Positions 36,763 to 55,781 of a stretch of DNA of 64,000 bases are shown piece by piece. The notes under the pieces are model-generated. The model saw nothing but the letters and a program-made list of their open reading frames with translations. It was not told where the DNA came from and ran no database searches. Source of the DNA: a virus. Taxonomy: Duplodnaviria > Caudoviricetes. The first letter of the stretch is position 1. Each line of letters opens with the position of its first letter. The DNA lies in the IMG/VR virus record IMGVR_UViG_3300028186_000155; one strand, given 5' to 3'. Position numbers and translations under genes: made by a program.

Positions 36763-36813
36763 CCGGTTTCATTTCCAATGGGCACCGCCTGATGCCCATT
36801 AAAAACTAGCTGG
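36763..36813 (-). repeat. structured intergenic RNA element, copy 1
   Basis: ccagCTA gtttttaatgggcatc AGGC ggtgcccattggaaat GAAA ccgg. Confidence 0.7.
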
Positions 36814-37009
36814 GGAGAATGTCTGTGTTTTCTTTTCGGAAGGCCTTCACATGCTGCTTGAAGGTTTTATTGACACGCCGTTCCAGTTCAGCGATTTCGT
36901 TGAACTCTTCGGCACCGTTGGCAAGATCGAAACTGCTACTGACCACATCGCGGGCGCCTTGCACCGCTTGGCCATTAAAGCTCGACAGATGATTGCGGAG
37001 ATTGTTCAT
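36806..37009 (-). CDS. hypothetical protein
   Basis: GAGGA SD. Confidence 0.65.
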   Translation of the reverse strand: MNNLRNHLSSFNGQAVQGARDVVSSSFDLANGAEEFNEIAELERRVNKTFKQHVKAFRKENTDILPS

Positions 37010-37037
37010 AATTTCCTCGGTTTTTCCTCAGTGTTTC

Positions 37038-37481
37038 TCATTTGGTGTAGGTGCCGGTTCCGTATCGGCTTTCCCACCGGGTTTTCTTGCGGTTTTCCTC
37101 GGCCTCGGCAAAACGTGTTTCTGCCTCAGCAATGCGCTTGCGTTCCAGCGCCGTGTAACAACCCCGTTCCATCCGATTGCAGTAGCGCTGTGCCTGCCTC
37201 GCGGTGCGGAACATCCGGTGAAAGCTGATGGTCAGCATATCGTCGCTGATTAGGCTTTCAATCCACACCACGCGTTCACGCAGATTGTTTATGCCGCCCT
37301 CGGCACACTCAAAGCCCCATTGCGGTTTGTTGAAATACGGCGAATAGAACGGCTTAGGTCGGTTCAGGATGTTTACAGTATCGCACCACGCCACGTTTTT
37401 GCTCGGGTCCGAGTGTGGGAACACGAATGCATGGTAGACCGTTTTGCCCTGCCGGAAATCCTTTAAGCGAAGCTTGGCCAT
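37038..37481 (-). CDS. hypothetical protein, paralog of 38559..39050
   Basis: DFRQGKTVY...F.T...A.RY..RM..GC.T..E. Confidence 0.75.
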   Translation of the reverse strand: MAKLRLKDFRQGKTVYHAFVFPHSDPSKNVAWCDTVNILNRPKPFYSPYFNKPQWGFECAEGGINNLRERVVWIESLISDDMLTISFHRMFRTARQAQRYCNRMERGCYTALERKRIAEAETRFAEAEENRKKTRWESRYGTGTYTK

Positions 37482-37484
37482 TGT

Positions 37485-37904
37485 TCAATATCCGTATTGT
37501 TGCATGCGTTTGCGCATGATTTGTTCGAAGGTGCGTTGCTCGAAATGGGTCAGCTGGTGATTGTCCATTCGCGCCTTGTAGATTTCCGCATCTTCCCGAT
37601 TGGTAAAAGTGCGGCACAGGTTGTAGGTGTTCGGGATGATACCGGCGTCACGCAATGACATGTCGGTCACGACTTTGTTTCGCTTGCCGTCCCGGCGCAC
37701 GCCTACATGGTGCGCATACCAACGGTCGTTATTGAACAGCTTGGGCAGGCTGCGCACTTCGACCGTGGAAATTCGCGTGGGTTGTAGGCGGTCAAACGAC
37801 ACGCCCACGATGAACAGAATGGCGCCCGGCACAACATCCACCATGGTGGCCCTTGGGCCTTCCATATGGCGCGGCTGCTGGTAGAAACCGACGATATTAT
37901 TCAT
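37485..37904 (-). CDS. hypothetical protein, distant member of the same family
   Basis: RTFTNREDAEIYKARMDNHQLTHFE. Confidence 0.7.
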   Translation of the reverse strand: MNNIVGFYQQPRHMEGPRATMVDVVPGAILFIVGVSFDRLQPTRISTVEVRSLPKLFNNDRWYAHHVGVRRDGKRNKVVTDMSLRDAGIIPNTYNLCRTFTNREDAEIYKARMDNHQLTHFEQRTFEQIMRKRMQQYGY

Positions 37905-38562
37905 TTACAGTTTCCCCTACTTGCAGATGGCGCGGGAATTCGCGATTGCGCTTCACGGCCTCGGGGCTGAAATGTGTGTCGTACAGCGACGGCTTGCGCT
38001 CCAGCACCATATACAGATCAGCAATGTAATGCTCCAATTGATGATCAGGATATTTCGTTTTGTTCACCATCAGCTTACCGTTGATTTGGTAGGCCTTCGA
38101 AGCGAAACGCCACGTATGCGGCAGGGTATCGCCACCGCACAGCATTGCGTTGAATCCTACGGCCATCAGCAGCGGCCTTTGACCTTTGTCTGGATCTACG
38201 GGCAAGTTGGTTTCAACGTGCGTGAATTGCATGTCGAAGCGCTTGGCGTGATCTTCCATGATCGGCAGGGCTTCAGGCGGTGCCAAGAAGATAACGCGGT
38301 CAGTGCCTTCTGCGCTTTGGTGGAATGTGCGGCCCCGGTTGTCTAAGTATTCCTGTCCGTGATCAGGGCCATCCACGTTCGGAATGAAACCGCCGATGGA
38401 AATATACAGCTTTTGTTCTGCACCTTTGAACGGAACCAGCTTTTGCAGTTCAAGGCGCATCAGCTGATATGCCAGCACGTTGGCGTCGTGCAGTGTGTCG
38501 AGGTAGAAATTCAGCAGACGCTCGCCTTCGACTTCGTGAGTCAGCAAAAATGTTTTTCTCAT
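37897..38562 (-). CDS. hypothetical protein
   Basis: GGAG SD, ATGA coupling. Confidence 0.75.
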   Translation of the reverse strand: MRKTFLLTHEVEGERLLNFYLDTLHDANVLAYQLMRLELQKLVPFKGAEQKLYISIGGFIPNVDGPDHGQEYLDNRGRTFHQSAEGTDRVIFLAPPEALPIMEDHAKRFDMQFTHVETNLPVDPDKGQRPLLMAVGFNAMLCGGDTLPHTWRFASKAYQINGKLMVNKTKYPDHQLEHYIADLYMVLERKPSLYDTHFSPEAVKRNREFPRHLQVGETVNE

Positions 38563-39484: not shown

Positions 39485-39486
39485 GA

Positions 39487-41696: not shown

Positions 41697-42670
41697 GGCA
41701 TGGTTCCATATGCGGCTTTGTATTTATCGGCGGTTTCTTCGTAGGTGTATTGCATCACCAGCACAGCATAGGCCGCCGACACGCGTTGTACGTCGATGCC
41801 TTCGGGCGTCAGCGCAATATATTGCTTCGTGTGGCCCATCATTTTTTCCTGCACTAGTCCGCAATTCATCATGCGGCGCAGGCAGCGGTTTGCGTTCACC
41901 CGCGACATGCCCACATTGCCAACCAAAATGCGGCGGCACGTCACACCGTTTTTGACAAGGTGCTGATGCAGCGTTTGGTGGCGGGTGTCGGAAACCGTGG
42001 CGTTCTTGTCCAGCGCTTCCAGCAGCTTTTCGATCAAGCGTTGGTTGCTTTGGCCGAACTCCAACGCATTTGCCAATTGCGCCACTGGCGGCACGTTTGG
42101 GGCCTCTTCGCGGGCGTCTTGTCGGGCGATCCGGTCGTCAACGGTTTCGGCTGCACGCTGCACCTTGTGTTGGTGCATGGGGTCCATTTCCGCGTCAATC
42201 TCGCGCTGCAAACGATTGTTGAGCACACGCCCATAGGCGGTCAGTTTTTTGAACTGTTCACGGGTAGCGCCGCCCCCGGTGTTCCCCGCCATCAGGTGGA
42301 TGAAAACGCGCAGGATTTCGAGCGCTTCTTTGAAATCCTGCTCCTGAATTTTATTCCACTCGTTTTTGATCGTGCGGTCGCCCAGTTCCTTGCGGCCCGC
42401 TTGGCGACGTTCGGCCTGTGCCGCTTTGTGGTGGTCGGCTTCGTATTCGTAGGTTTTTACGTGTGCCACGGTTTTGTGATCGGGCTTGCCGATAACTTTC
42501 TTGCTGGTGTACAGCCACACGATGGCCCCCGAATGGGCAGCATAAACAACACTAGCGATCCGCTGGCCGGTCGCAAGGTCCAGCAGGTCTACGCCAGTGT
42601 CATCGATGCACACCATTTGATTGGGGAACATTTGGCGAATGTCACGGCGATTCATGTTTGCCATTTTCAT
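41693..42670 (-). CDS. protein with C-terminal winged-helix (MarR-like) domain
   Basis: VGMSRVNANRCLRRMMNCGLV...YIALTPEG. Confidence 0.65.
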   Translation of the reverse strand: MKMANMNRRDIRQMFPNQMVCIDDTGVDLLDLATGQRIASVVYAAHSGAIVWLYTSKKVIGKPDHKTVAHVKTYEYEADHHKAAQAERRQAGRKELGDRTIKNEWNKIQEQDFKEALEILRVFIHLMAGNTGGGATREQFKKLTAYGRVLNNRLQREIDAEMDPMHQHKVQRAAETVDDRIARQDAREEAPNVPPVAQLANALEFGQSNQRLIEKLLEALDKNATVSDTRHQTLHQHLVKNGVTCRRILVGNVGMSRVNANRCLRRMMNCGLVQEKMMGHTKQYIALTPEGIDVQRVSAAYAVLVMQYTYEETADKYKAAYGTMP

Positions 42671-43092
42671 GCTGTGATTTCCTTTCGAGTGCGAGGTTTA
42701 GGCCAGACCATTTCAGGCAGGTCTTCCTCTAGCGGGCCGTCATAGATTGGGTTGGTTGCCTTGAGACTTTGGAGCTTGGCGAGCAATACGCGATTGGTGG
42801 TAAAGCGCATGCCTAGCGAGCGATACAAGGCGATTGCTGGCGCGTTGTCCGGGTAGACCAGCAAACGCATTTGTTGCTGTTCCCACATGCGCACGTGGCG
42901 CAGCAGGCGGCGCATAATCCCCTTGCGCCGATAGTTGTCGAAAGTCGAGACGCCGTGAATTGCGACGTAGCCGTCAAACTGCACGACTTCCAAATACGCG
43001 GCATAGGCGCCGTTGTACATCAGCCGGTACTCTTGAATCTGCGCAGATTCCTTACTCGGTATGCGCTCGATTTTGATTACGCAATTTTCCAT
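42667..43092 (-). CDS. GNAT-family acetyltransferase (RimI-like)
   Basis: VSTFDNYRRKGIMRRLL; LLVYPDNAPAIALYRSLGM. Confidence 0.8.
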   Translation of the reverse strand: MENCVIKIERIPSKESAQIQEYRLMYNGAYAAYLEVVQFDGYVAIHGVSTFDNYRRKGIMRRLLRHVRMWEQQQMRLLVYPDNAPAIALYRSLGMRFTTNRVLLAKLQSLKATNPIYDGPLEEDLPEMVWPKPRTRKEITA

Positions 43093-43102
43093 TTTATTGC
43101 TC

Positions 43103-43155
43103 GCTGGTTTCACTCGGATACGCACCATTCTAGATGCGTATCGAAGTTAATCAGC
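43103..43155 (-). repeat. structured intergenic RNA element, copy 2
   Basis: gctgATTA acttcgatacgcatc TAGAAT ggtgcgtatccgagt GAAA ccagc. Confidence 0.75.
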
Positions 43156-43702
43156 TTTCAGTTTTTACCATGACGATTGGCGTTGCGGGTTTCGGCACGA
43201 TACGGAAATCATGCGCGAATTGCTCACTGTGCATTTGGCCCAAGTAGAAGGCAGCGTGCAGCATGTTGCGCCCGTGGGTTTGGATATCGCCAGTGCGTGC
43301 CTCGGGCGTATCCGGGTCGAATGTGATTTCGAAACGGTAATCGGCGCCCGGATCATTCGGGTCATGGTCGTGGTTGATTTCGACCATTTCACGTACCGCA
43401 TTTTCCTGCTGTTCTGCCCAGCTATGAATGTCGTTCCAGCCCAGTTGCAGCAGCAGATAAACAGGCTCCACGAATTCAGCAGGCACCACGCTTTCTACGG
43501 CTTGACGCATGGTCAGCCGGTAGAACTGTTTGTGGTCAACCACGTTGAGGTAATAGTAGGGCTTGCCTTCCTCTTTTTCGCGCTCCCAATCGGCATCGCA
43601 TTTGGCTTGCGCTTTCTCGCTGGCTGCACGGTCGAAAGAGTCTTCGTGTGCTTTGGCAGCGGCACGGATGAATGCAGCGAATTGCAGTGCTTGAAGTTCC
43701 AT
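43151..43702 (-). CDS. hypothetical protein
   Basis: start moved to MELQAL (GAGGA SD). Confidence 0.75.
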   Translation of the reverse strand: MELQALQFAAFIRAAAKAHEDSFDRAASEKAQAKCDADWEREKEEGKPYYYLNVVDHKQFYRLTMRQAVESVVPAEFVEPVYLLLQLGWNDIHSWAEQQENAVREMVEINHDHDPNDPGADYRFEITFDPDTPEARTGDIQTHGRNMLHAAFYLGQMHSEQFAHDFRIVPKPATPIVMVKTES

Positions 43703-43757: not shown

Positions 43758-44216
43758 TCAACGGTTAATGAAATGGCCGTTGGCATCGCACCGGCTGAAG
43801 ATGCTGGTTTTCTTGCCGTCGATTTCCACTTTCTGTTCCCGCATGACTTTGTGCGGGTCCAGTCCGTAAATGAAATTGTCTACGCGGAATTCGATACGCG
43901 ACCATGGCCGGGTGTTGTGTTCCTCCCACGCCACGATTGCATCCCGCAGGCTGGCGAAGTCATCGCTGTATTTGCAATTTTCTTCGTCGCCGTCCCAGTT
44001 GCCAGCTACAACGCCGTAGGGGAATGCACCTTTCGCGAATTCCTCCAGCGATTCTTTTGGAACCGCGTTCGCACGGTTCGCAAGATCGATCACACCTTTC
44101 AGGAATTCCGTCTCGGTCAAAACGCCCGATGCGTACTGCACCGACAATTCAGAAACTGCGTTGTTGGTTTCGCGGTTGAAAGTCAGGATGGTGATCAGCG
44201 CTTGTTTGTGGTCCAT
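43758..44216 (-). CDS. hypothetical protein
   Basis: start moved to MDHKQA (GAGGA SD). Confidence 0.75.
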   Translation of the reverse strand: MDHKQALITILTFNRETNNAVSELSVQYASGVLTETEFLKGVIDLANRANAVPKESLEEFAKGAFPYGVVAGNWDGDEENCKYSDDFASLRDAIVAWEEHNTRPWSRIEFRVDNFIYGLDPHKVMREQKVEIDGKKTSIFSRCDANGHFINR

Positions 44217-44253
44217 GGTTCGATCCTCGTTGGGTCCAGAAAAGGGAAGCGTC

Positions 44254-44340
44254 AAACTTCCCTAAAAGTGTGAGCGTCTAACTTGCAGGCACAGTTGCCC
44301 GAAGAGGTTTCATTGTACCTATGGGCCGACGAACGGTCAA
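44254..44340 (-). promoter_or_regulatory. sigma70-type promoter + hairpin + conserved leader, copy 2
   Basis: TTGACC-N17-TACAAT; GGGCA-ACTG-TGCCT hairpin; ACGCTCACACTTTTAGGGAAGTTT. Confidence 0.8.
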
Positions 44341-44345
44341 CCGTC

Positions 44346-44786
44346 CTACAGCGGCCTCTTACAGCACGGGCAGCGCTCCACGCCCTTTACGGTGGTCCCT
44401 ATAGGCTTACGGCCTTTGTGCAGGAACAGGCCCACGCGGTGCGCCCCTGAATAGTCCACAGGCATGCCCGACACATAGGGAGCGCGCAGGGCAGCCAATG
44501 ACGCACGGGTGTTCGGTGTGGCGCCAAGGCCGGGGCCTAGTACCCGTGCTGAATCTTTATCAAGGCACAACGGGCCACGCGGTTTTTCTTCGTCTGGTTT
44601 CTTGCGGTGCCAGATTCCGCCTGCACGTTGTTTTGCGTCGTCGCGCAATTCTCGCAGAATGGTAGCGGCGCCGGGATAACCATCGCGCTCAAGTTCCTTA
44701 ATGCACACGGCCAAACGGCCTACAGTGATTTCTGAAACCAGTTCGTAGCCACCTTCGACCACGCGTTGAAAGAAATAACGGTCCAT
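44346..44786 (-). CDS. hypothetical protein
   Basis: start moved to MDRYFF (AGGA SD); C-terminal CPCC. Confidence 0.7.
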   Translation of the reverse strand: MDRYFFQRVVEGGYELVSEITVGRLAVCIKELERDGYPGAATILRELRDDAKQRAGGIWHRKKPDEEKPRGPLCLDKDSARVLGPGLGATPNTRASLAALRAPYVSGMPVDYSGAHRVGLFLHKGRKPIGTTVKGVERCPCCKRPL

Positions 44787-44793
44787 ATATTTC

Positions 44794-45462
44794 CTATGCA
44801 GTTTTGAAAGCCAGATGATCTTTATCAACCCACACCCCGTGACGGGCAGCCAGATATTCAATCGTGTTGTGTTTGCCGTCGATCATCGACCGGGGATCTA
44901 CCACGACCACCGAATCAATCTCCGGTGCGTAGAATTCCACGGTTTTCAGCAGACGCGCCAGATCAAAACCGATCACCATTTCAGCGGCAGGCGTGCGCGG
45001 GTGCAGGAACAGAACCTGCTGGCGTGCCTGCCCAACCAGATACAGGCCGCGCAAATTACCGACCGTGATTTCCATGTCCTCGTTTATTTTCAGGTCGGGT
45101 TCATTTTTCACCATGGGCACCACACCCACGGTACGTCCATTGCGCAGGAACGCCGCCACGTAATCTAGCCAGCGCACATTATTGGTAATGTGGTTTTTGA
45201 TTCCGTGCCGGTAATTGAAACTGATATCAGGGTCGCGCAGCATCACGCCGTAATCCAGACGGTTTTTGAACGCGCCCCAAATCAGGGCTGGTGCATACAG
45301 CCAAATTCGCCAGCGTGGCAGGTGGTAAATCTTGGCGGCCTTGAGGTGGTAGTAAAAGCCGACCATGGCACCGAGGAACCACGGGATCTTTTTTGCCACC
45401 AGCAACAAACAGAAAAGGGCACACAACACCAACGGCGTGAGCACCCAAAAATTAATTGCCAT
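44794..45462 (-). CDS. membrane-anchored hypothetical protein
   Basis: N-terminal TM; AAGGAG SD. Confidence 0.75.
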   Translation of the reverse strand: MAINFWVLTPLVLCALFCLLLVAKKIPWFLGAMVGFYYHLKAAKIYHLPRWRIWLYAPALIWGAFKNRLDYGVMLRDPDISFNYRHGIKNHITNNVRWLDYVAAFLRNGRTVGVVPMVKNEPDLKINEDMEITVGNLRGLYLVGQARQQVLFLHPRTPAAEMVIGFDLARLLKTVEFYAPEIDSVVVVDPRSMIDGKHNTIEYLAARHGVWVDKDHLAFKTA

Positions 45463-45473
45463 GGTTTTCTCCT

Positions 45474-46841: not shown

Positions 46842-46843
46842 AT

Positions 46844-47047
46844 TCACTCCGTCAGTGCTTGACACACAATGCAGCGTTGCGCCGTGGGGTGCGCCTTCAG
46901 CCGGGCGGCCCCTATAGGTTCGTCGCAGTCGATACAATCGGTGCGTGGTGGTCCTGCGAGCGATTTACGCGCCCGGTAAATTTCCAGCGCTATGGAATTT
47001 TCCATTTCCTTTTCCATGTCGCCGTCACGTGCCCAACCTACAGCCAT
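46844..47047 (-). CDS. TraR/DksA C4-type zinc finger protein (YbiI-like)
   Basis: MAVGWARDG N-terminus; CIDCDEPIGAARL..P...RCIVCQ. Confidence 0.85.
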   Translation of the reverse strand: MAVGWARDGDMEKEMENSIALEIYRARKSLAGPPRTDCIDCDEPIGAARLKAHPTAQRCIVCQALTE

Positions 47048-47060
47048 AATTTGTACTCCG

Positions 47061-47112
47061 GTGTTTCATCCTGTTGCGCACTCAAGAGAATGCGCAGCAG
47101 TGATTATTCCAC
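47061..47112 (-). repeat. structured intergenic RNA element, copy 3
   Basis: gtgGAATA atcactgctgcgcattc TCTT gagtgcgcaacaggat GAAA cac. Confidence 0.7.
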
Positions 47113-47415: not shown

Positions 47416-47424
47416 AATGTCTCC

Positions 47425-47748: not shown

Positions 47749-47752
47749 GTCG

Positions 47753-48088
47753 TTACTCCACTTTTACCCATGGGCGCAAAACGTAGCGCTCTTTCAAATA
47801 TTTCAGCCAGTCTTTAGCCGTGTCGCCACTGGCCAGAACCTCGCCGTTTTTCTCCAGCTTGAAACCAATGGTCGTGGTTCCAAGTTTGTGCGTGAATGAG
47901 GCGTGCCCAAACACTTCGGAATTTTGATACAGCAGGAAAACGACGGTCGTTGCATCCTGCTCGGTGTCGTAGTGGCTTTCGAGTGCCGCACCGTGCAATT
48001 TCGATACGTCGATAAAGTGGTTGCGCACCACCTGCGTCAGGTTGGCTATGCGTGATGCACGGGGGTGTTGCCGGTCGTGAATTTCCAT
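47753..48088 (-). CDS. hypothetical protein
   Basis: start moved to MEIHDR (TGATG coupling). Confidence 0.7.
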   Translation of the reverse strand: MEIHDRQHPRASRIANLTQVVRNHFIDVSKLHGAALESHYDTEQDATTVVFLLYQNSEVFGHASFTHKLGTTTIGFKLEKNGEVLASGDTAKDWLKYLKERYVLRPWVKVE

Positions 48089-48672
48089 CACTTCGCCTTT
48101 TTCTTTTTCCGTTTGCGGTTGCCGTGGCAATCCACAAGGCCCGCCAGTTGATCGTCGGCGTCCCGTGTATCGATGTTGAACGCTTCGAGCATTGCGCGGT
48201 TCATCACCTCGGGATAACCATCGACGTTTATTTCCATCGTCGGCTCTTCCGAGAACAGCGCAGATGCCACGATGGCTGAAACCTGATCCATCAGGAAATC
48301 AATCATGCCGTCGTTTTCGTCGTAGAGGACAGTGGCGCGTTGCTCTTCGTTCAATTCCGCGAACGTCGCCGGGAACTCAGGATAAAAGAATGGCGTATAG
48401 TTTTTCGCCACGTGATCTTGAGCCTGTTCAGGCGTCCATTTACTTTCGTAGAACGGCTGCCATGTGTTGTTGTGCAGCACCTGCACCGTGACGCCCACCG
48501 ATGCCACGATATCCACCGAAATGCGGACGTGTGGCTGGCCACCTTTCAGCAGGATAACGGCTAGGTCGCCATCACGTTTTACTTTGGTGCCGCACTCGCT
48601 GCGCAGGCCGCCGATGCAGGCCTCTGGAAATTTGTAAGGTTTCATTTGTTGTTCCTCGGGTGTCAGTTTCAT
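48088..48672 (-). CDS. hypothetical protein
   Basis: start may be the internal MKPYKF (GAGGA SD). Confidence 0.7.
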   Translation of the reverse strand: MKLTPEEQQMKPYKFPEACIGGLRSECGTKVKRDGDLAVILLKGGQPHVRISVDIVASVGVTVQVLHNNTWQPFYESKWTPEQAQDHVAKNYTPFFYPEFPATFAELNEEQRATVLYDENDGMIDFLMDQVSAIVASALFSEEPTMEINVDGYPEVMNRAMLEAFNIDTRDADDQLAGLVDCHGNRKRKKKKAK

Positions 48673-48713
48673 TGTGCCTGCGCACCAGCTAGATGCGCAG
48701 AACCAATTAGCTG
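48664..48713 (-). repeat. structured intergenic RNA element, copy 4
   Basis: cagCTA attggttctgcgcatc TAGCT ggtgcgcaggcacaat GAAA ctg. Confidence 0.8.
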
Positions 48714-48989
48714 TCAGTCTTCGACCGTTTCATCCGGGTGCAACAAGCCCTGCGATTTCAGAGCCTTTTTGAATTCGAGGAAGCCGATGCCATTCACGCA
48801 CTTGTCGCCGTGCACCATGGTGACGACGAAATAATCGCCTTCGTCCACGGTGAAAGTGCAGACCAGCTGATTTTTACCAGCGCGGCGCTCTTCTACGCTG
48901 TATAGTTGCACGTTCCCGAAGCTGTTGATCAGTGCCACGTGATTTACGTCAGCGAAAAGCGATTTAACGGTGTTTGTCATTTTCCACAT
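48714..48989 (-). CDS. hypothetical protein
   Basis: GAGGA SD. Confidence 0.7.
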   Translation of the reverse strand: MWKMTNTVKSLFADVNHVALINSFGNVQLYSVEERRAGKNQLVCTFTVDEGDYFVVTMVHGDKCVNGIGFLEFKKALKSQGLLHPDETVED

Positions 48990-49011
48990 TTTTGAATCCT
49001 CGTTGGGTCGT

Positions 49012-49062
49012 CAGTTTTACCGTGCCTGCACACTCCTTAGAATGTGCAGAACCGATTAGCTG
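49012..49062 (-). repeat. structured intergenic RNA element, copy 5
   Basis: cagCTA atcggttctgcacattc TAAG gagtgtgcaggcacggt AAAA ctg. Confidence 0.8.
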
Positions 49063-49491
49063 TTATTCGGAAATTACGCGCATGCCGTAATGGTCGCTGT
49101 TGCCTTTGCGGTAGAACTCAACGACGCGGCCATGCATGCGGATTTTCTGGCCGGGTTTCAGCAGCACCATTTCCCAGCGTGCGCGATTGTGGCCGACGAT
49201 GGAAGATGCGCAATTGTTCACCCAGTACAGTTCGTGCTTGCGCTCGGTGCATTGCGCTTCAGCCGCTACCGGGTCTTCGTTGTACTCCATCGCGTAATAG
49301 GCGCTGCAATTCGGCGCGACTTCAGGATACAGCGTGCCGTGGCGCATGGATTCTTTAGCCACGCAGAAACGCAGGCCGGGCTGGCCGATACCGTCACCCA
49401 TCGAACCGAAAGGCAGGTCGAGGATTTCTTGGTTCAGGTCTACAACGTCGAAAGCTGGAACGGATTTTACGAGGGTTTTGGTAGCGGTCAT
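49063..49491 (-). CDS. hypothetical protein
   Basis: AGGAG SD. Confidence 0.75.
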   Translation of the reverse strand: MTATKTLVKSVPAFDVVDLNQEILDLPFGSMGDGIGQPGLRFCVAKESMRHGTLYPEVAPNCSAYYAMEYNEDPVAAEAQCTERKHELYWVNNCASSIVGHNRARWEMVLLKPGQKIRMHGRVVEFYRKGNSDHYGMRVISE

Positions 49492-49527
49492 TTTGTGGCT
49501 CCTGATAAGGATCGTTTTGGTTTGGTA

Positions 49528-49578
49528 CAGCTTCGTTTCATATGCGCACCGTTCTAGATGCGCAGAAAAAACTCACTG
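49528..49578 (-). repeat. structured intergenic RNA element, copy 6
   Basis: cagTGA gttttttctgcgcatc TAGAAC ggtgcgcatatgaaac GAAG ctg. Confidence 0.75.
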
Positions 49579-49722
49579 GTCAATCTTTGTGGCACCGCGT
49601 GGCTTCGGGGCGTTTTTCTTGCGGCGCCATTCAACGTAAACGAAGGCGCCCATGATTGCGAGAACCGAGGCCAGCACGGCGATTTCTTTAACGTGGCCGA
49701 TGGTAGTAGTTGCGTATTCCAT
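49573..49722 (-). CDS. 49-aa single-TM protein (not in ORF track)
   Basis: MEYATTTIGHVKEIAVLASVLAIMGAFVYVEWRRKKNAPKPRGATKIDQ; TAAGGA SD. Confidence 0.65.
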   Translation of the reverse strand: MEYATTTIGHVKEIAVLASVLAIMGAFVYVEWRRKKNAPKPRGATKIDQ

Positions 49723-49734
49723 TGTAGCGGTTCC

Positions 49735-49965
49735 TTATTTGGCGTTGGCGGTGATGTTGGACAGGGTAGCGGTGATGTTGTGCTGGTGCTGCTGGGGAAT
49801 GAAGGTTGCGATGATGCGGCCAATCTGGAAATCAGACTGCGCGCTGGCAATTGCTGCTGCCTCGCTTACTTCGATCACCGGGAAGGTCACGCGCTTGTTT
49901 GCAGTGGCCTTGGTTTCGGTGTTGGTGAAAGTGGCGGTGGCCGAGATTTCGAAAACGCGTTTCAT
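49735..49965 (-). CDS. hypothetical protein
   Basis: start moved to MKRVFE (AGGAG SD, ATGA). Confidence 0.65.
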   Translation of the reverse strand: MKRVFEISATATFTNTETKATANKRVTFPVIEVSEAAAIASAQSDFQIGRIIATFIPQQHQHNITATLSNITANAK

Positions 49966-50177
49966 TGTTGTTGCTCCTGAATTTTGTTGAGTAGGGTTTT
50001 GCCTTCGCTGATCCACTGATCCAGCGTCAGGTCGGTTAAGCGGCACACGGCGTCAACGCTGTGCGTCTCATAAACGTTGTTGGCCGGGTCGTCATACGTG
50101 AAATAGAAGTAACCCGAACCTTTGTACAGCGTCAGTTTATCCGAACCCAGCGCTTTAATGATTGTGGTGGTTCTCAT
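49962..50177 (-). CDS. hypothetical protein
   Basis: ATGA coupling. Confidence 0.7.
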   Translation of the reverse strand: MRTTTIIKALGSDKLTLYKGSGYFYFTYDDPANNVYETHSVDAVCRLTDLTLDQWISEGKTLLNKIQEQQQ

Positions 50178-50326
50178 TTGCTGATCCCTTTGCGGAAGCG
50201 GCGGGCTGCGTCAGAAACCAGTTGTTCGCGTTCGGCTTCGGCTTTGCGGATATCGGAATCCCAATTCCAAGTGGCGGCTTTGGGGGCGTAAGCGGATTTG
50301 CGTTTGGCAGTCGATGCGTAGGCCAT
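50174..50326 (-). CDS. 50-aa protein (not in ORF track)
   Basis: MAYASTAKRKSAYAPKAATWNWDSDIRKAEAEREQLVSDAARRFRKGISK; directly after leader copy 3. Confidence 0.7.
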   Translation of the reverse strand: MAYASTAKRKSAYAPKAATWNWDSDIRKAEAEREQLVSDAARRFRKGISK

Positions 50327-50330
50327 TTTT

Positions 50331-50417
50331 AAACTTCCCTAATTGCGTGAGTGGGAGATTAGCGGGCAGCCAATCTCTAGGTGGCCCAAAGGTATCAAAG
50401 GCCTGTTAGGGAGTCAA
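50331..50417 (-). promoter_or_regulatory. sigma70-type promoter + hairpin + conserved leader, copy 3
   Basis: TTGACT-N17-TACCTT with TGn; GAGATTGGC-TGCCC-GCTAATCTC; CACTCACGCAATTAGGGAAGTTT. Confidence 0.8.
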
Positions 50418-50515
50418 CACCTTTCGTTTGGGCCAGTGGCTATGCCTCTGTACGCGCATACGCGCACGCATGCGTATAAAGAAGCAGTGGCCAGCCCACC
50501 GGGCGCCAGAAACGC

Positions 50516-50549
50516 AAAAGGCCCCGCCAGCGCGAACTGGGGAGCCTTT
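50516..50549 (-). terminator. intrinsic terminator
   Basis: AAGGCTCC-CCAG...CTGG-c-GGGGCCTT stem followed by TTGCGTTT. Confidence 0.65.
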
Positions 50550-50553
50550 AGGG

Positions 50554-50964
50554 TCAATCGGGATATGTGATGGTCCAGCGCCCAGCCTTGGAATCGAATT
50601 CAACCACACCCAGTCTCGGGGCAACGGTCGGTTTCGGCTCCTTACGTGGTTTCGGTATGTCCCACTCGTTGCGAATCTTCCCGTACTGGATTCGCGTGGC
50701 ATCGGGCTTAGCGCGGCTGCTTTCCAAAACGCGCACGTAATCTTTCAGGCGCATGTTTTCTGCCTTGAGGGAATACGCGTTCTGCTTGAATCCGCGCAGT
50801 GTCTCTTGTTGCTTGTGGTTGGCAATCTCCAGCTGTGAAACCCGGACGCTGTATTTGTGGCCCTCCTTTTCCGCTTCCAGAAATTTGCGGCGCCACACAA
50901 ACGACGACCACACCATAATGCCCAGCGCCACCAGCAGAATAATTACCGGCCATTGCCCATTCAT
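50554..50964 (-). CDS. single-TM coiled-coil protein, tandem paralog 1
   Basis: MWSSFVWRRKF-type TM end; C-terminal G.V.FD.K.GRW.IT. Confidence 0.75.
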   Translation of the reverse strand: MNGQWPVIILLVALGIMVWSSFVWRRKFLEAEKEGHKYSVRVSQLEIANHKQQETLRGFKQNAYSLKAENMRLKDYVRVLESSRAKPDATRIQYGKIRNEWDIPKPRKEPKPTVAPRLGVVEFDSKAGRWTITYPD

Positions 50965-51338
50965 GTTATGTGCCACCTGCCAGACTTGATATCAAATGTG
51001 ACCATTCCCAAATGCGGCCCATCGCAAGGTTGATCAGGCACGCCATAAATACCTGCCTTGTGATCTAGCCGGTCATCGGTCTTTACGCGGCTGCCCTCTA
51101 GCGTGCGTACATATTGACGTAGCAAAATGTTTTGCGCTTTGAATTCCCTGTTACTCTGTTTGAATTCGTCCACTTCATTTTTGAGCCTGTGCCAATTGCC
51201 CCGAACGTGAGCAAGATCAGTGCGCAATCCATCAGCCTCATTAGATACGCGCATAAACTTGCGGCGCCAAACAAAAGAAGACCACATCATAACGCCGAGC
51301 ATCACCAGCGTAAGAATTAACGGCCAATCAGCATTCAT
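50961..51338 (-). CDS. single-TM coiled-coil protein, tandem paralog 2
   Basis: WSSFVWRRKF; LGMVTFDIKSGRWHIT. Confidence 0.75.
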   Translation of the reverse strand: MNADWPLILTLVMLGVMMWSSFVWRRKFMRVSNEADGLRTDLAHVRGNWHRLKNEVDEFKQSNREFKAQNILLRQYVRTLEGSRVKTDDRLDHKAGIYGVPDQPCDGPHLGMVTFDIKSGRWHIT

Positions 51339-51607
51339 GTTACGCGCCAGCCTCCAGTCTTTTTGCACAGTTCGAAAGTAGCGCCCACCTGTTCCTGTTC
51401 CTTGGGCGTATCGTACTTGGAGCGGAATTTGTGCAGGTGACGCAATTGCAGGTTTTCTACTTCCAGCAGCATTGCTTTCGCTTCGGCTGCCTGCACACGG
51501 CGGCGCATGGCGGTTATGCGTTCGTATTGTTTCACCGACAGCATAACCATGAACATGCAGGCGCCAATTAAAAACACGGTGCCGATTTGTGACCCGGTAA
51601 TGGTCAT
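51335..51607 (-). CDS. single-TM coiled-coil protein, tandem paralog 3
   Basis: start MTITGS (AGGAGG SD); FELCKKTGGWRVT. Confidence 0.7.
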   Translation of the reverse strand: MTITGSQIGTVFLIGACMFMVMLSVKQYERITAMRRRVQAAEAKAMLLEVENLQLRHLHKFRSKYDTPKEQEQVGATFELCKKTGGWRVT

Positions 51608-51615
51608 GGTGCCTC

Positions 51616-52008
51616 CTACGAATGGCAGTCGATTTTTACGCGGGCGTTGGTGGCTGCTGCGGCCTGTTCCATCGCCGGGCGCATATGGTCGGCATTCTTG
51701 GCACACGCAGGCTCGGCGTATTCTTTGCCGTAGAACTGCGCCAGTGCGAAACCGTCGCACTGTTCGTTCTCCGTGCCCTGCGCCGCGCACACTTTGAAAT
51801 TCAGTGTGGCCAGCACGGGCAACTTACTTTCGGGCATGCCGCTTTTGCAGCTAAAGGTTCCTGTGCGCTTTTCTTTAAGCGCAGATTCCTGCATGCCGTC
51901 ACGATTGTAATTGCACATGAAAGCAGCTTGCGCCGTGAAGAAATCTGCGACACGCACTTCCTTGCACGGTTGACCAGCCAGACAAATATTCAGCATCAGC
52001 GAAAGCAT
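51616..52008 (-). CDS. Cys-patterned protein with internal duplication
   Basis: two ~55-65 aa units, each with four Cys. Confidence 0.7.
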   Translation of the reverse strand: MLSLMLNICLAGQPCKEVRVADFFTAQAAFMCNYNRDGMQESALKEKRTGTFSCKSGMPESKLPVLATLNFKVCAAQGTENEQCDGFALAQFYGKEYAEPACAKNADHMRPAMEQAAAATNARVKIDCHS

Positions 52009-52026
52009 TTTATGTTCCTTAGACCA

Positions 52027-52599
52027 TTAGGCCAGTGTGATTACTTTTTTGTTGTCGCTGCCACGTGTGTCGTTCAGCCATTTGACTGCGCGCTTCACGT
52101 AGCGTTTGAAGTCACCGACGTTTTCACAGTCGATATAGTCGTGGTCGTTTTCCGGGGTGGCGATGCGCTGAAGTTTGAAACGGCTTTTCGGATAACGCAC
52201 TTTCCATTGGAACGACAACGGCAGGTCGTAGGCATCAGGTTCCATACCGCGACCATAACTGAAGTCGATTTCGTGGCCTGCGTTGGTTTTAAACGTGAAG
52301 CACCAGCCATATTGCACCGGCCCGAAAACGCCTTCATGTTCCACACTGGAAACGATGGCGCCCAGTTGTTCGGCTGCGGCTTTTAGTCGCGCAATGATTT
52401 TTTCTTGGCGTTTGAATTCTGCGTCGATACGGACAATCAGTTCGGCCAAGGAAATTTCCCGATGCTGCGCCGCCTGCAACATGCGCAAATGGTTATGTGC
52501 CGCTTGGAAAACTTCTTCGGCGTTGGCCAGCATTTGATCGTGTTGCGCGTCCCATGCGAAGCCGGTGGCAGGGATTTCAATTTTCTTTGCGCGTGCCAT
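52027..52599 (-). CDS. hypothetical protein
   Basis: GAGGA SD. Confidence 0.75.
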   Translation of the reverse strand: MARAKKIEIPATGFAWDAQHDQMLANAEEVFQAAHNHLRMLQAAQHREISLAELIVRIDAEFKRQEKIIARLKAAAEQLGAIVSSVEHEGVFGPVQYGWCFTFKTNAGHEIDFSYGRGMEPDAYDLPLSFQWKVRYPKSRFKLQRIATPENDHDYIDCENVGDFKRYVKRAVKWLNDTRGSDNKKVITLA

Positions 52600-52601
52600 G
52601 T

Positions 52602-53078
52602 TTATTCCTCTTCCGCTGGTTCGTAGCGGTAAATGGTAATCAGGTGGTGAGTGACGCCGTTGCGCACTTCGGTTTTCTTACCGTAGCCACCGCTGTACAT
52701 CCAGCCGTCAGCAACACGATTTGGCGGCAGCTTCGGTTCCTCGTCCCAAGCTTTTTTCGGCTGCGCCCTGATCCAAATTTCTTTGGTCACTTTACCCAAG
52801 CCGAAATATTCCGCGCTCTGTTCGAATTCCCACTGGGCGCGAATTTCTGCGCGGTTGCCCATTGCAGCCATCAGGCCACCGGCAGGAATGGTGATGGTGC
52901 CGAACGAACGCGACGACCGATCACAGATAACACGAATTTCGAGATTGAAATCTATGTCGCTGTTGTGGTCAGGGCGGTGCAGCGCGTAATCAATTTCACG
53001 CCGGTTAATATTGATGCGCACCGGGTAAAGCTTTTTGATTTCGGCAGGCACCGTGATTTCATTTTCAGGTTTACGCAT
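52602..53078 (-). CDS. hypothetical protein
   Basis: start moved to MRKPEN (GAGGA SD). Confidence 0.7.
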   Translation of the reverse strand: MRKPENEITVPAEIKKLYPVRININRREIDYALHRPDHNSDIDFNLEIRVICDRSSRSFGTITIPAGGLMAAMGNRAEIRAQWEFEQSAEYFGLGKVTKEIWIRAQPKKAWDEEPKLPPNRVADGWMYSGGYGKKTEVRNGVTHHLITIYRYEPAEEE

Positions 53079-53085
53079 ACAATCC

Positions 53086-53709
53086 TCACAGGTAAGCGTA
53101 AGCGTCGAGTTCCGGCAATTTTTCATCGCGCTTGAATCGGCGCATGGTCCACAAAGCGGTTTGAATTCGCCCCTCGTCGTGCAGCAAATTCACCGGGTAG
53201 ATTTCCAGCGGTGGCCGGTAGGTGCGGCGCAGCGCGTCCATTGGATCGCGCACAGCAGGCCCCGAATAAACCACCATCACTTCTTTGCTCGCCATGATGA
53301 ACCGGATAACGAAACCGTGAGTCATCATCGCCAGCGAGAAATCATCAAACGTTTTACCTTCGCACGGGAAACCATCCACGTTCGGATAATCGAACCGGGG
53401 TTTCTCTGTATTTACAGTTTCGACCTCAACCACGGTTTCAATTTCACCCGCCGTTTCAGTTTCACGCATACGGGCCAACGCCCGCTCTTCAGCAGTGAAC
53501 GGGATATCCCGCACAGGCGTTTGATTTGCAGCGTTCCAGAAACCGCCCGGCTCTTCGTCGGTGGTGATTTCCGAAATATCCAGATCGGGCAAGGCGCGTT
53601 CAACGCTATCAGCCTTTTCCAGTTTGGTAATGCGCCACAAAGCATAAACGCACAGCACCACCAAAATGCCCAGCACCGCAAAGAACAATTTGATATGCAG
53701 CGTATCCAT
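53086..53709 (-). CDS. single-TM membrane-anchored protein
   Basis: N-terminal TM; GGAG SD. Confidence 0.75.
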   Translation of the reverse strand: MDTLHIKLFFAVLGILVVLCVYALWRITKLEKADSVERALPDLDISEITTDEEPGGFWNAANQTPVRDIPFTAEERALARMRETETAGEIETVVEVETVNTEKPRFDYPNVDGFPCEGKTFDDFSLAMMTHGFVIRFIMASKEVMVVYSGPAVRDPMDALRRTYRPPLEIYPVNLLHDEGRIQTALWTMRRFKRDEKLPELDAYAYL

Positions 53710-53739
53710 TTGCTACTCCCATCGACTTTTTCAAGGTCG

Positions 53740-53778
53740 AAAAATAACCCCCTTTGAACTGGTCGCCGGGGGTTTATT
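53740..53778 (-). terminator. intrinsic terminator
   Basis: AACCCCC...GGGGGTT stem followed by ATTTTT, after the 508-aa gene. Confidence 0.65.
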
Positions 53779-53796
53779 GGTTTGGGTACTGCCGAG

Positions 53797-55323
53797 TTAC
53801 AGCGCGTTGAACTCGGCAATGGTCATGGTGTTGGCGTAGGTCGGTTGGCCGTCGTTCATGTAGATCAGATCGAGAGGCAAACCGGCGTGACCTTCGGCGG
53901 CAGATACTGCGGTCGAAACACCGTCACGTTTCACGATACGCAGCACCGAAACGATTTTCGATTTTGCGCCCTTCGTTACGCGTACCCCCAGTTCCTTGAT
54001 TTCGTCGCGGGTAGGCTTAACGGTGGTGCCTTTCTTTGCAGTGCCCTTGCCTTCAGCGGCTGCGAAATTCAGGCGTGGAGCCTTGCCGTTTACTTCCTGT
54101 GCCGCTTGCTTGGCTGGGGCCTTGCGGGTGTTCTCGGCAGACTTTGCACCGGCTTTAGCGTTGGTCGAAGCTACACCGGCCTTTTCCATGGCGCCGGAAA
54201 TCAGGGCCAAATCAGAAACGCGGAACTTGCCTTTCACTTCGATGATTGCGGCCAGTGGTACACGCTTGCCGCTGGTGGTGATTACCACGCGTTCGTCGGT
54301 TTCTTTGACGCGCATGATTTTCTCAACCTGTTCCAGCTTGCGGCCATCCATGAAACCTTTGGCGCGCAATTCGGTGGTGCTGATTGCCTTGTGGGCAGGT
54401 GCTGCATTTACTACGGCCTTGGTGGTCGGGGCCTTTGGCGCAGGCTGCGAAGTTTCTTTGTGCTGTGCAGCCGATTTTTCGAGGCCGTGGTTTTTGACCA
54501 TGCGACCTTTGCGAGTGGTGGAAATCTTGGTGGTGAGGTGCTTCCAAGGCTGTGCGGATTCCTCGAATGCGCGCACGTCTTTCAGCGACATATCATCGTA
54601 GGCCCACACTGCTTTGTCCTTCATGGTGACAAACAGCGTTTTGGTGTTGCGGTCGTACTGGGCGCCAGTCAACTGGGTGCTGGTTTTGACTTTCAGGTCG
54701 CGGATTGGGAACACGCGGCCTTCGGTGGCGCTGGCAGCGGCCTTACCGGCGTTTTTGGTGCTGGCCGGGGTTTCGGTCGGGAAATCTTCCTGCTCGACTG
54801 CTGGGGCCTTCGCTGGGGCTTTGGAACCACCTTTTACTGGGGCAGCAGGGGCAGCGGTGTATTTGTCCACCAGATCCAGCTTAACGCGCAGGTTGCCGCG
54901 ATTGTTGAATTCCAGATCGGCAGCGGCGATTTTGCTGCCCTTGTCGGTAACGACAGTGCGCACGCCAGCGATGTTCGAAATACGCAGCACCTTTTCTTTG
55001 CTGCGACCGATCATCAGTTCACCAGCTTCGCGGATGGCGCCGGATTTCAGTTCTACCGCGTCAGCTTTCGGCGCTGGGGCAGCTTTGCCAGCCGGGGCCT
55101 TGGTTTCGGTCGCTTTCGGCGCTGGGGTGCCAGCAGCGGCTTGCTTGGCTTTGAAATCCTTCAGCCAGCTGTTCAGTTCGCGATAGGTAACGCCGTTACC
55201 GATATCGTCACCGAGTTTGTACAGCGGGGCGCCGGTTTCTTTTTTGTGTTGCTTGTTACGCTCGATCAGCGATTCAGCAGCAGCAACCAGCAGGGCAGTT
55301 TGAGTGTGGATTACGTTGGTCAT
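53797..55323 (-). CDS. Lys/Ala/Pro-rich multidomain protein with central KTSC domain and three repeated beta domains
   Basis: STQLTGAQYDRNTKTLFVTMKDKAVWAYDDM = KTSC pattern; PAPKA linkers. Confidence 0.75.
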   Translation of the reverse strand: MTNVIHTQTALLVAAAESLIERNKQHKKETGAPLYKLGDDIGNGVTYRELNSWLKDFKAKQAAAGTPAPKATETKAPAGKAAPAPKADAVELKSGAIREAGELMIGRSKEKVLRISNIAGVRTVVTDKGSKIAAADLEFNNRGNLRVKLDLVDKYTAAPAAPVKGGSKAPAKAPAVEQEDFPTETPASTKNAGKAAASATEGRVFPIRDLKVKTSTQLTGAQYDRNTKTLFVTMKDKAVWAYDDMSLKDVRAFEESAQPWKHLTTKISTTRKGRMVKNHGLEKSAAQHKETSQPAPKAPTTKAVVNAAPAHKAISTTELRAKGFMDGRKLEQVEKIMRVKETDERVVITTSGKRVPLAAIIEVKGKFRVSDLALISGAMEKAGVASTNAKAGAKSAENTRKAPAKQAAQEVNGKAPRLNFAAAEGKGTAKKGTTVKPTRDEIKELGVRVTKGAKSKIVSVLRIVKRDGVSTAVSAAEGHAGLPLDLIYMNDGQPTYANTMTIAEFNAL

Positions 55324-55328
55324 GATCT

Positions 55329-55415
55329 AACTTCCTATAAAGTGTGAGTGTCAAACTTAGTCGGCGTGGTTGCCGATTGGATTTCAGAATGCCATTAGAG
55401 GCGCGTGCGTGTCAA
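55329..55415 (-). promoter_or_regulatory. sigma70-type promoter + hairpin + conserved leader, copy 4
   Basis: TTGACA-N18-CATTCT with TGn; TCGGC/GCCGA hairpin; ACACTCACACTTTATAGGAAGTT. Confidence 0.75.
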
Positions 55416-55702
55416 CGGCTTTTGCGTCGGGTTTCGTTTAGGACCGGGCGAATCTGCAATGCCGGGTCGTTGTTGTACAGGATTCCGTCCGCACCAATGT
55501 AGGTTCCGGGCGCAACGTGCCAAACCTGCATGTGCGGTTCCAGCTTCCTGCGCGGGCCGCCCTCAACTTTCGAAAGCGCTTCCTTGATGGTTTCGCCCCG
55601 GCCCCACTCCCCGAAATCCACGACGATGAATTGTGTTAGCGCCGGGTCGAGGTTGGCGGGGGTTTCGATTTCCGTTTTCGAGACGGCAGCTTTGCGTGCC
55701 AT
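55412..55702 (-). CDS. hypothetical protein
   Basis: GGAG SD; WGRGETIKEAL. Confidence 0.7.
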   Translation of the reverse strand: MARKAAVSKTEIETPANLDPALTQFIVVDFGEWGRGETIKEALSKVEGGPRRKLEPHMQVWHVAPGTYIGADGILYNNDPALQIRPVLNETRRKSR

Positions 55703-55731
55703 GGTTCGTACTCCATTTGGGTTTGTGGTTT

Positions 55732-55781
55732 CAGTGCAGCCAGCTTGCGCACCATTCTAGATGCGCAAACGGGTTTACCTG
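55732..55781 (-). repeat. structured intergenic RNA element, copy 7
   Basis: cagGTA aacccgtttgcgcatc TAGAAT ggtgcgcaagctggct GCA ctg. Confidence 0.75.

Follow-up and report, generated by a model that had tools for sequence, protein, structure and literature searches.

The closest described systems to the locus presented here are the RNase III processing sites of phages T7 and T3 (R0.3, R0.5, R1, R1.1, and R1.3), which are irregular hairpins of ∼50 nt located between early genes, just past a stop codon. RNase III needs at least 11 bp from the distal box to the cut, makes full contact over ∼22 bp, and tolerates any terminal loop sequence and length (PMC1540722). The Escherichia coli enzyme is most stringent at distal box 2 and proximal box 2, the latter being A-U or U-A and never G-C or C-G (PMC1540722; PMC6212723). 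The rules further call for U-A at distal box 1, U-G at distal box 2, G-C at proximal box 1, and A-U at proximal boxes 3 and 4, without G-C or C-G at the last of these. C-G at distal box 1 is suboptimal in vitro, and cleavage in E. coli is slower with G-C at proximal box 4.

The hairpins described here share the size, irregularity, and placement of the T7 and T3 sites. They belong to a 314-kb Lu11/HRDY3-like jumbo phage, which is soil-derived and of the myovirus type, and they lie within the window, the 64,000-nucleotide stretch of DNA that was analyzed. An earlier note, made from the sequence alone, had placed seven copies on the mRNA strand by stop codons and ahead of the next gene. All seven were found at those places, in intergenic positions on the minus strand, which is the sense strand of a polycistronic gene block. 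Each of two covariance models built from the hairpins returned exactly these seven matches genome-wide, with a large gap to the next match. We infer that the seven hairpins are candidate host RNase III processing sites that would nick the early transcript 22 to 47 nt before the next start codon, a reading to which we assign a probability of roughly 85%. The hairpins, neighboring genes, and predicted promoters are as follows.

36761..36814, minus strand: copy 1, predicted cut 36775/36774
43101..43156, minus strand: copy 2, predicted cut 43115/43114, G-C at proximal box 4
47057..47112, minus strand: copy 3, predicted cut 47071/47070, G-C at proximal box 4
48661..48715, minus strand: copy 4, predicted cut 48675/48674, within a 2x2 mismatch
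49009..49064, minus strand: copy 5, predicted cut 49023/49022, next AUG at 48989
49525..49580, minus strand: copy 6, predicted cut 49539/49538, next AUG at 49491
55728..55783, minus strand: copy 7, predicted cut 55742/55741 on the 3' strand, wobble G at 55752, upstream stop ending at 55782, next AUG at 55702
42667..43092, minus strand: GNAT acetyltransferase gene, directly downstream of copy 2
46844..47047, minus strand: DksA/TraR C4 zinc-finger gene, directly downstream of copy 3
48714..48989, minus strand: 91-aa gene, function unassigned, between copies 5 and 4
49063..49491, minus strand: 142-aa gene, function unassigned, between copies 6 and 5
44312..44340, minus strand: sigma-70-like promoter (consensus match only), predicted start upstream of copies 2 and 1
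50389..50417, minus strand: sigma-70-like promoter (consensus match only), nearest predicted start upstream of copies 6, 5, 4, and 3
56599..56627, minus strand: sigma-70-like promoter (consensus match only, weak -10 hexamer), nearest predicted start upstream of copy 7

In 7/7 copies, the 5' basal strand contains or immediately follows a stop codon, and an AUG is found after the predicted cut in every copy at the distance given above; for copy 4 this AUG, at 48645, has a ribosome-binding site. The upstream stop codon makes the loop in copy 1 (UAG) and in copy 3 (UAA), and the latter precedes the DksA/TraR-like gene. The cap, the U-G wobble, the 4- to 6-nt loop, and the compensatory changes listed previously are as described in the seven copies. 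Folding z-scores against dinucleotide shuffles range from -3.3 to -5.8. As the earlier note had observed, the wobble pairs on the minus strand only, and the mRNA strand is the more stable one in every copy, by 0.8 to 9.0 kcal/mol. Three other assignments were considered and rejected. TAGAAT occurs in some loops without a correctly spaced -35 element and is missing in other copies, which does not support a promoter. For a hammerhead ribozyme, GAAA is present, the CUGANGA strand is absent, and Rfam is silent. With respect to an intrinsic terminator, no U tract follows any of the seven copies by sequence inspection, in line with the earlier note, and a terminator scan of 44001-64000 made no call at the five copies in that interval.

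Conservation of the hairpin was examined in related phages. Five of them, including the cultured phages Lu11 (seven sites) and PaBG (three sites, at 18764-18818, 18322-18377, and 10416-10471), contain 28 further hairpins, giving 35 copies in six phages, and covariation across this family is clear. No copy was detected in Dickeya phage JA11 using one covariance model of the hairpins, and a loose pattern scan of viral contigs returned mostly chance matches. Copy 7, for instance, has orthologues in HRDY3, two IMG/VR phages, and Lu11. The hairpins are kept at the same gene boundaries while the flanking proteins drop to roughly 45 to 80% identity. Three cap pairs are invariant among the compared copies. 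The terminal loops vary in sequence across phages and range from 4 to 24 nt, with an insert of up to 24 nt in Lu11, and this freedom agrees with the loop independence of RNase III. Rfam searches returned no match in the window at the gathering score and, for the four copies within 46800-49800, none at E values up to 10.

Below the upper helix, the hairpin continues with a lower helix of 3 to 4 bp and a basal stem. The UA/GA internal loop emphasized in the earlier note is present, by a strict definition, in 5/7 copies of this genome; it is not invariant, being found in 18/35 copies across the six phages. The single copy described as having GA in place of UA (49528, copy 6) does exist; in this copy, the preceding 49-codon gene (49722-49573) terminates with UGA within the internal loop. 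An A-G mismatch closes the lower helix in 23/35 copies, and in one HRDY3 orthologue a 9-bp Watson-Crick helix replaces the UA/GA loop. Loop E and sarcin-ricin motifs contain tandem A-G and U-A pairs, and the hairpins resemble them in having UA opposite GA beside a helix. Unlike loop E, however, the arrangement is not in all copies, and it lies in the middle box of the lower half, where RNase III tolerates change.

To compare the upper helix with the published box rules, the register was counted from a T7-type cut and anchored on the U-G wobble; hence, the independent checks are the other box positions. Pair counts cover 30 copies that share ancestry, so a count of 30/30 does not represent 30 independent events. 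With this in mind, distal box 2 (-11) is U-G in 30/30 copies and in 3/3 held-out PaBG copies. Distal box 1 (-12) is U-A in 14/30 and C-G in 16/30; C-G occurs naturally at this position in T7 R0.3, T7 R1, T3 R1, and T3 R1.1, and the U-A/U-G distal box of copy 5 is that of T7 R1.1. Proximal box 2 (-5) is U-A in 26 copies and A-U in 4 of the 30; it is never G-C, though neighboring pairs exchange freely. Proximal box 1 (-6) is G-C in 24/30 and A-U in 6/30, with G-C in 6/7 copies of this genome. Agreement is poor toward the cut, where proximal box 3 is A-U in only 10/30 copies and proximal box 4 is G-C in 7/30, including the copies at 47061 and 43103; natural T3/T7 sites are mostly mismatched at proximal box 4. 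The pairs from -12 to -5 are formed in 30/30 copies, -4 in 22/30, and -3 in 23/30. The fixed arm of the hairpins corresponds to the ∼22-bp RNase III footprint. It should be noted that the box rules were derived from E. coli, and the phage host is probably a pseudomonad.

The same positions bear on a purely structural role, in which the hairpin would act as an exonuclease barrier, a pause site, or a factor-dependent terminator without RNase III. The stable fold directly after stop codons would suit such a role, as would the annotation of one phi15 look-alike as a terminator. A barrier, however, needs neither fixed pairs at -11, -10, -9, and -5 nor a fixed arm length, and a U tract is absent, which makes this reading very unlikely.

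Direct comparison with the T7 and T3 sites extends the likeness. The two groups have in common the CAUC/GGUG or CAUUC/GAGUG cap, U-G at -11, A-U at -10, C-G at -9, G-C at -6, a weak pair at -5, mismatches at the cut, and a free terminal loop. T7 R1.1 is similar in size, with a published 49-nt stem and symmetric boxes, and T3 R1.3 has the CAG/CUG basal stem, the 3x4 internal loop, and a 4-bp lower helix. The earlier note had proposed a cis-acting RNA structure on the mRNA strand and had drawn the comparison with T7 RNase III hairpins, with processing or stabilization as a role, and this was apt. Its suggestion that the element is of an undescribed kind did not hold, as the cap, wobble, and arm match the published RNase III distal box, proximal box, and footprint, and T3 R1.3 shares the architecture. 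There are also differences. The mid-stem of the hairpins is mostly GCGC/GCGC with U-A at -5, in place of G-G-U and A-U in T7/T3. The wobble at -11 is invariant in the hairpins, but is C-G in 5/11 T3/T7 sites. A UA/GA loop recurs in the lower half of the hairpins, and they occur in a 314-kb myovirus-type jumbo phage with no match to a gp0.7-like kinase (a search run without a positive control), where cleavage is predicted.

Model searches were carried out in both directions. A covariance model trained only on the hairpins of these phages was searched against 71 kb of T7-family DNA on both strands with filters off. The top five matches were T3 R1.1 (E 0.008), T3 R1.3, T7 R1.1, and two phi15 intergenic hairpins. 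For the T3 sites, the spans were those annotated in GenBank, and the position of T7 R1.1 was taken from a paper; the other T7 sites were located by sequence at what we take to be their positions. A pair model from the hairpins gave T7 R0.3 as its best match in the T7 genome and R1.1 as its second best, with the R1.1 match at nucleotide 5887 agreeing with the published position, and placed four annotated T3 sites on top. Filtered genome searches with the hairpin models returned no match in T7 or T3, and the putative annotated sites of gh-1 were not recovered by the hairpin model. In the reverse direction, a T3/T7-trained model scored positive in only one register along the hairpin. Permutation of the column order gave p values of 0.004 (the seven copies of this genome), 6e-4 (21 distinct copies), and 7.5e-5 (three PaBG copies held out). 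Genome-wide, copy 1 was the top match of the T3/T7-trained model, and the other copies ranked from 32 to 188.

The best match of the hairpin model outside these phages was an intergenic hairpin of the T7-like Pseudomonas putida phage phi15 (E 6e-4). The phi15 hairpins (2783-2838 and 1260-1314) lie between early genes, as here, are annotated as a terminator or carry no annotation, and have an upper helix nearly identical to that of two HRDY3/IMG copies. Look-alike hairpins also turn up in T7-like and temperate phages that are unrelated, and this distribution points toward a host factor. This bears on the possibility that an early phage protein binds the cap and the loop-E-like UA/GA loop to control translation, stability, or antitermination. 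Such a site would account for the unvarying cap pairs, for the frequency of the A-G closing mismatch and the UA/GA loop, and for retention of the family at the same gene boundaries despite divergent flanking proteins. The invariant pairs are, however, also the commonest in T3/T7 sites, and the analysis yielded no candidate protein. The loop has given way to Watson-Crick pairs or other bases in about half of the homologues, and because of this loss, binding of a phage protein at the UA/GA loop is clearly unlikely as the main role.

A further comparison was made with type I-C CRISPR repeats and RacrIC1 (PMC10651486), as a solitary repeat mimic (an RNA anti-CRISPR) could be cut by Cas5c into decoys. 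Both have a short G+C-rich stem, the stem core of the hairpins resembles CGC...GCG, a GAAAC-like run follows in many copies, and about 6/10 handle bases match after a shift of 3 to 5 nt. In a type I-C repeat unit, a 7-bp stem carrying a GU leader runs straight into an unpaired 11-nt handle. The comparison set consisted of 40 distinct 32-nt I-C-type repeats fetched from genomes, representing one repeat class. In this set, U-G occurred at the matching pair in 1/40 repeats, and the GU leader was found in 0/35 hairpin copies. The in-register handle identity was 2.4/10, which is the chance level, and the would-be handle is base-paired, covarying, and variable. The best identity was 11-16/27 non-loop positions (41-59%), whereas solitary CRISPR repeats are defined at ≥90% identity (PMC10651486). 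No Rfam CRISPR repeat matched, and we regard such mimicry as extremely unlikely.

The cluster of copies 6, 5, and 4, which bracket single genes as the earlier note had pointed out, could be reminiscent of an attC-like DNA recombination site for gene cassettes. Copies 5 and 4 are 80% identical, and gene-plus-hairpin units vary among relatives at this spot. The 142-aa gene is present in HRDY3 and IMGVR 3300045988_165726 and was not matched in the locus fetched from IMGVR 3300012277_000001. The 91-aa gene has no match at the equivalent place in HRDY3 or IMGVR 3300045988_165726, each of which has one hairpin fewer there. However, the wobble pairs form only on the mRNA strand and the top strand folds better, whereas attC is a bottom-strand hairpin with R''/R' cores and a cognate tyrosine recombinase. 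There is also no GTT-type core at the right end, and no tyrosine recombinase/integrase (PF00589) was matched in the genome. Sporadic homologous recombination among similar copies, in the absence of a dedicated system, would be enough to explain the single variable spot, and hardly any weight can be given to a cassette site.

Our current hypothesis is therefore that the hairpins are most likely an ordinary mRNA-processing signal and not a new kind of RNA. In this proposal, host RNA polymerase would transcribe the one-directional block of small genes from the sigma-70-like promoters, which are consensus matches. The early status of the transcripts is inferred from these host-type promoters and the small genes of unassigned function; no phage-encoded RNA polymerase beta subunit or RNase III was matched in the genome. 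The ∼50-nt hairpin, whose fold is supported by covariation, would form just past the stop codon. Following the published rules, an RNase III dimer would dock on the upper helix via the distal box (Y-R at -12, U-G at -11) and the proximal box (at -6, G-C or A-U; at -5, A-U or U-A), while the lower helix, internal loop, and basal stem would occupy the other half of the ∼22-bp valley. The enzyme is predicted to cut the 3' strand 11 nt past the wobble G. A single T7-like nick is probably favored over a double cut, given the frequent mismatches at the cut-site pairs and the irregular lower half. The upstream message would thus retain an exonuclease-resistant 3' hairpin, and the downstream message would gain a new 5' end ahead of its start codon. 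It is conceivable, if unlikely, that the hairpins are docking sites whose lower half forms a phage-controlled switch, such that an early phage protein, or a ribosome terminating on the embedded stop codon, at the UA/GA loop decides the cut at each junction and the enzyme binds without cutting wherever proximal box 4 is G-C.

The region is present in eight soil metatranscriptome runs as contigs, which cannot show RNA ends. In three runs, the flat depth (about 6-21) and the long contigs (up to 69-142 kb) make DNA carry-over likely. Contig breaks fall inside copy 4 in two runs (48669-48693 and 48696) and inside copy 2 in one (43149), with none at the predicted bonds and others elsewhere; as a sign of cleavage, the breaks in copies 4 and 2 are a weak hint at most.

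If the RNase III assignment is correct, T7-style processing would extend to jumbo phages of the Lu11/PaBG group, where literature searches returned no report of RNase III processing, and nucleotide-level cut predictions would apply to the two cultured phages, PaBG and Lu11. The 35 copies would provide a natural alignment of what are probably substrates of Pseudomonas RNase III, which suggests that the E. coli box rules hold in Pseudomonas and that selection on the U-G wobble is strong. The finding brings no new mechanism; it would be of use for annotation and would add modestly to the RNA biology of phages.

The window belongs to a complete virus record of 314,224 bp with direct terminal repeats, recovered from soil DNA. 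The nearest named relatives are the Pseudomonas phages HRDY3 (78% DNA identity across part of the region) and Lu11, which together with PaBG form one jumbo-phage group that uses the host RNA polymerase plus its own sigma factor (PMC7412058). The hairpin region consists of small, mostly unknown genes, all on the minus strand and running in a single direction, and we infer that this block is an early region. Contigs from RNA runs over it probably include DNA.

All seven hairpins described in the earlier note were present as claimed, and the observation of a repeated structured RNA element is confirmed. Each hairpin folds better than its own shuffles (z -3.3 to -5.8), and its mRNA strand folds more stably than the opposite strand. 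A whole-genome search with two covariance models returned these hairpins as the only full copies, and comparison of the hairpins to Rfam gave no match. An intergenic hairpin outside the window (G000:C1:255323-255342 of the whole phage genome, minus strand) has the upper half of the element and a weak lower half, and is a possible degenerate eighth site. In all seven copies a stop codon is found inside or just ahead of the 5' basal strand.

Hairpin copies, their stop codons, and 3'-strand cuts predicted from the T7-type register
55732, minus strand, copy 7: stop codon immediately before CAG; predicted cut 55742/1
49528, minus strand, copy 6: UGA stop codon provides the internal-loop GA; predicted cut 49539/8
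49012, minus strand, copy 5: stop codon immediately before CAG; predicted cut 49023/2
48664, minus strand, copy 4: stop codon immediately before CAG; predicted cut 48675/4
47061, minus strand, copy 3: UAA stop codon provides the internal-loop UA; predicted cut 47071/0
43103, minus strand, copy 2: stop codon within the basal stem; predicted cut 43115/4
36763, minus strand, copy 1: UAG stop codon provides the internal-loop UA; predicted cut 36775/4

Covariance models found seven copies each in HRDY3 and Lu11, six in IMGVR 3300012277_000001, three in PaBG, and five in the portion of IMGVR 3300045988_165726 examined; homologous hairpins mostly occupy the same gene boundaries. An alignment of 28 rows shows 95% pairing in the 10-bp upper helix, with both sides changed in 7 of its 10 pairs, and the observed covariation score was reached by no shuffle and no slid control, although these controls overstate the independence of the covariation because the copies share ancestry. 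RNAalifold predicted the same upper helix unaided. The lower helix of 3-4 bp also has two-sided changes (AUUG/CAAU, GUUU/AAAC, AACC/GGUU, UCC/GGA). In the Lu11 orthologue of copy 55732 (L013:1505-1578, equal to Lu11 5426-5499), the 24-nt loop is able to form its own small hairpin.

By every sequence test run, the hairpins largely qualify as a T7/T3-type RNase III signal, a reading to which we assign a probability of roughly 85%; two minor box positions fit loosely. The 3' strand of T7 and T3 sites reads R-G-U-G from -12 to -9 relative to the cut. With the hairpin cap set in this register, position -12 is C-G or U-A, and positions -11, -10, and -9 are U-G, A-U, and C-G, respectively, in 30/30 copies. 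Position -6 is G-C in 24/30 and A-U in 6/30 copies, and position -5 is U-A in 26/30 and A-U in 4/30. In vivo data revealed that A-U or U-A is strongly preferred where a conserved glutamine makes contact, and that G is preferred 11 nt from the cut (PMC6212723); these preferences, which we assigned to -5 and -11, agree with the hairpin pairs. The terminal loop is irrelevant to RNase III, and that of the hairpins is free, with an insert of up to 24 nt in Lu11. The fixed arm proposed earlier consists of ten upper pairs, two cut positions, and 3-4 lower pairs; adding the internal loop and basal stem gives the ~22 bp footprint of the RNase III dimer. T7 R1.1, a 49-nt stem, has the same design (PMC8708148). 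The earlier interpretation is partly supported: an RNA element like the T7/T3 RNase III hairpins is upheld, one of an undescribed kind is not. We found no literature report of RNase III signals for this phage group.

For the cross-tests, a covariance model from 28 jumbo-phage copies alone was run with filters off on both strands of T7, phi15, gh-1, and the left end of T3 (71 kb). The first three matches, with rough E-values, were phi15 2783-2838 (6e-4), T3 6003-6056 (0.008), and T3 6512-6567 (0.07), followed by phi15 1260-1314 and T7 5848-5901. GenBank labels the T3 matches R1.1 and R1.3, and the T7 match contains R1.1. T3 R1.3 resembles copy 48664 in its basal CAG/CUG, 3x4 loop, 4-bp lower helix, and 2x2 loop at the cut. 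Both phi15 hairpins (L029) are early, intergenic, and resemble RNase III sites; 2783-2838 carries a terminator annotation. A ten-pair model from the copies ranked R0.3, R1.1, and R1 at 1, 2, and 6 in the T7 genome, versus 128, 14, and 119 by pairing alone, but for the three T7 sites with C-G at -11 it fell behind a ranking by pairing only. In T3, it placed R1.1, R0.5, R1, and R1.3 on top. The reverse model, from eleven T3/T7 sites, ranked copy 36763 first in the whole phage genome and the other six at 32-188, all in the predicted register, the only one scoring >0 along the hairpin. With this model, the pair order outperformed random orders at p = 0.004 in the seven copies; 21 distinct upper halves gave p = 6e-4, and three PaBG copies outside training gave p = 7.5e-5.

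Look-alikes in small viral contigs (L033:6955-7009, L072:1695-1745, L034:8020-8074, L045:8027-8082, L112:7434-7488, and L040:2519-2573) lie directly after stop codons, three of them upstream of a phrog_1376 gene; their upper stem was selected by the search pattern, their lower pairing and position were not. None matched Rfam, and one contig is related to Pseudomonas phages MR13/MR15.

The UA/GA internal loop, claimed as a shared trait, is present in 18/35 copies by a strict rule and is not universal; an A-G closing mismatch is found in 23/35, and in HRDY3 the orthologue of copy 36763 replaces the loop with nine Watson-Crick pairs. This loop is the sole trait stronger in these hairpins than in T7. 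Judged from sequence, a protein-binding epitope would explain this pattern less well than non-canonical pairs that preserve a helix-like lower half at a place where RNase III is permissive.

Other hairpin-forming elements were compared and rejected. Relative to type I-C CRISPR repeats from 80 genomes, the copies have no GU leader, their would-be handle is off register and paired, identity reaches only 41-59% versus the 90% defining solitary repeats, and the hairpin wobble is almost never seen in real repeats. An attC site fails on strand, core, and recombinase, and a terminator on the missing U tract after the hairpins.

A second repeated element consists of a sigma-70-like promoter, then a short hairpin and the motif CACTCAC-N8-GGAAGTT. 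The motif has 12 genome matches with <=1 mismatch (reversed control, 0), five of them elsewhere in the genome. The element might function either as a DNA operator or as a leader RNA.

Sigma-70-like promoters and CACTCAC-N8-GGAAGTT motif matches, minus strand
Promoter 63369; motif 63305-63284
Promoter 61871; motif 61806-61785
Promoter 56627; motif 56565-56544
Promoter 55415; motif 55350-55329
Promoter 50417; motif 50353-50332
Promoter 44340; motif 44276-44255
Motif 15889-15868

Immediately downstream of one hairpin each are a DksA/TraR zinc-finger gene (46844-47047) and a GNAT acetyltransferase gene (42667-43092), plausible host-takeover genes. A 508-aa protein (53797-55323) has a weak KTSC-domain match under the Pfam cut-off. 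A 396-aa protein (6844-8034) is related to virion proteins of Noxifer-, RP12-, and phiPA3-like phages; Lu11 and PaBG are absent from the 30 matches listed, a possible exchange between jumbo phage groups. The gene-plus-hairpin units at 48661-49580 differ among relatives: at this locus, ORF 48714-48989 and one hairpin are missing from HRDY3 and IMGVR 3300045988_165726, and IMGVR 3300012277_000001 has this ORF and lacks 49063-49491. Hairpin copy 5 shares 80% identity with copy 4, and the variable genes near copies 4-6 may stem from ordinary recombination between similar copies.

The hairpins are established in fold, covariation, box identities, and position, and host RNase III would bind each and cut its 3' strand; no RNase III was found encoded in the phage genome. 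The two pairs at the predicted cut are formed in only 19/30 and 17/30 copies, versus ~90% paired at double-cut E. coli sites, and one nick is therefore more likely than a double cut. Such single nicks leave 3' hairpins that stabilize the upstream message (PMC3867540). Proximal box 4 is G-C in copies 47061 and 43103, an identity that slows cleavage 14-fold in a minimal E. coli substrate with binding unharmed, and therefore the sites may differ in efficiency. Following the nick, the upstream message would retain a stabilizing 3' hairpin and the downstream message would begin 22-47 nt ahead of its AUG.
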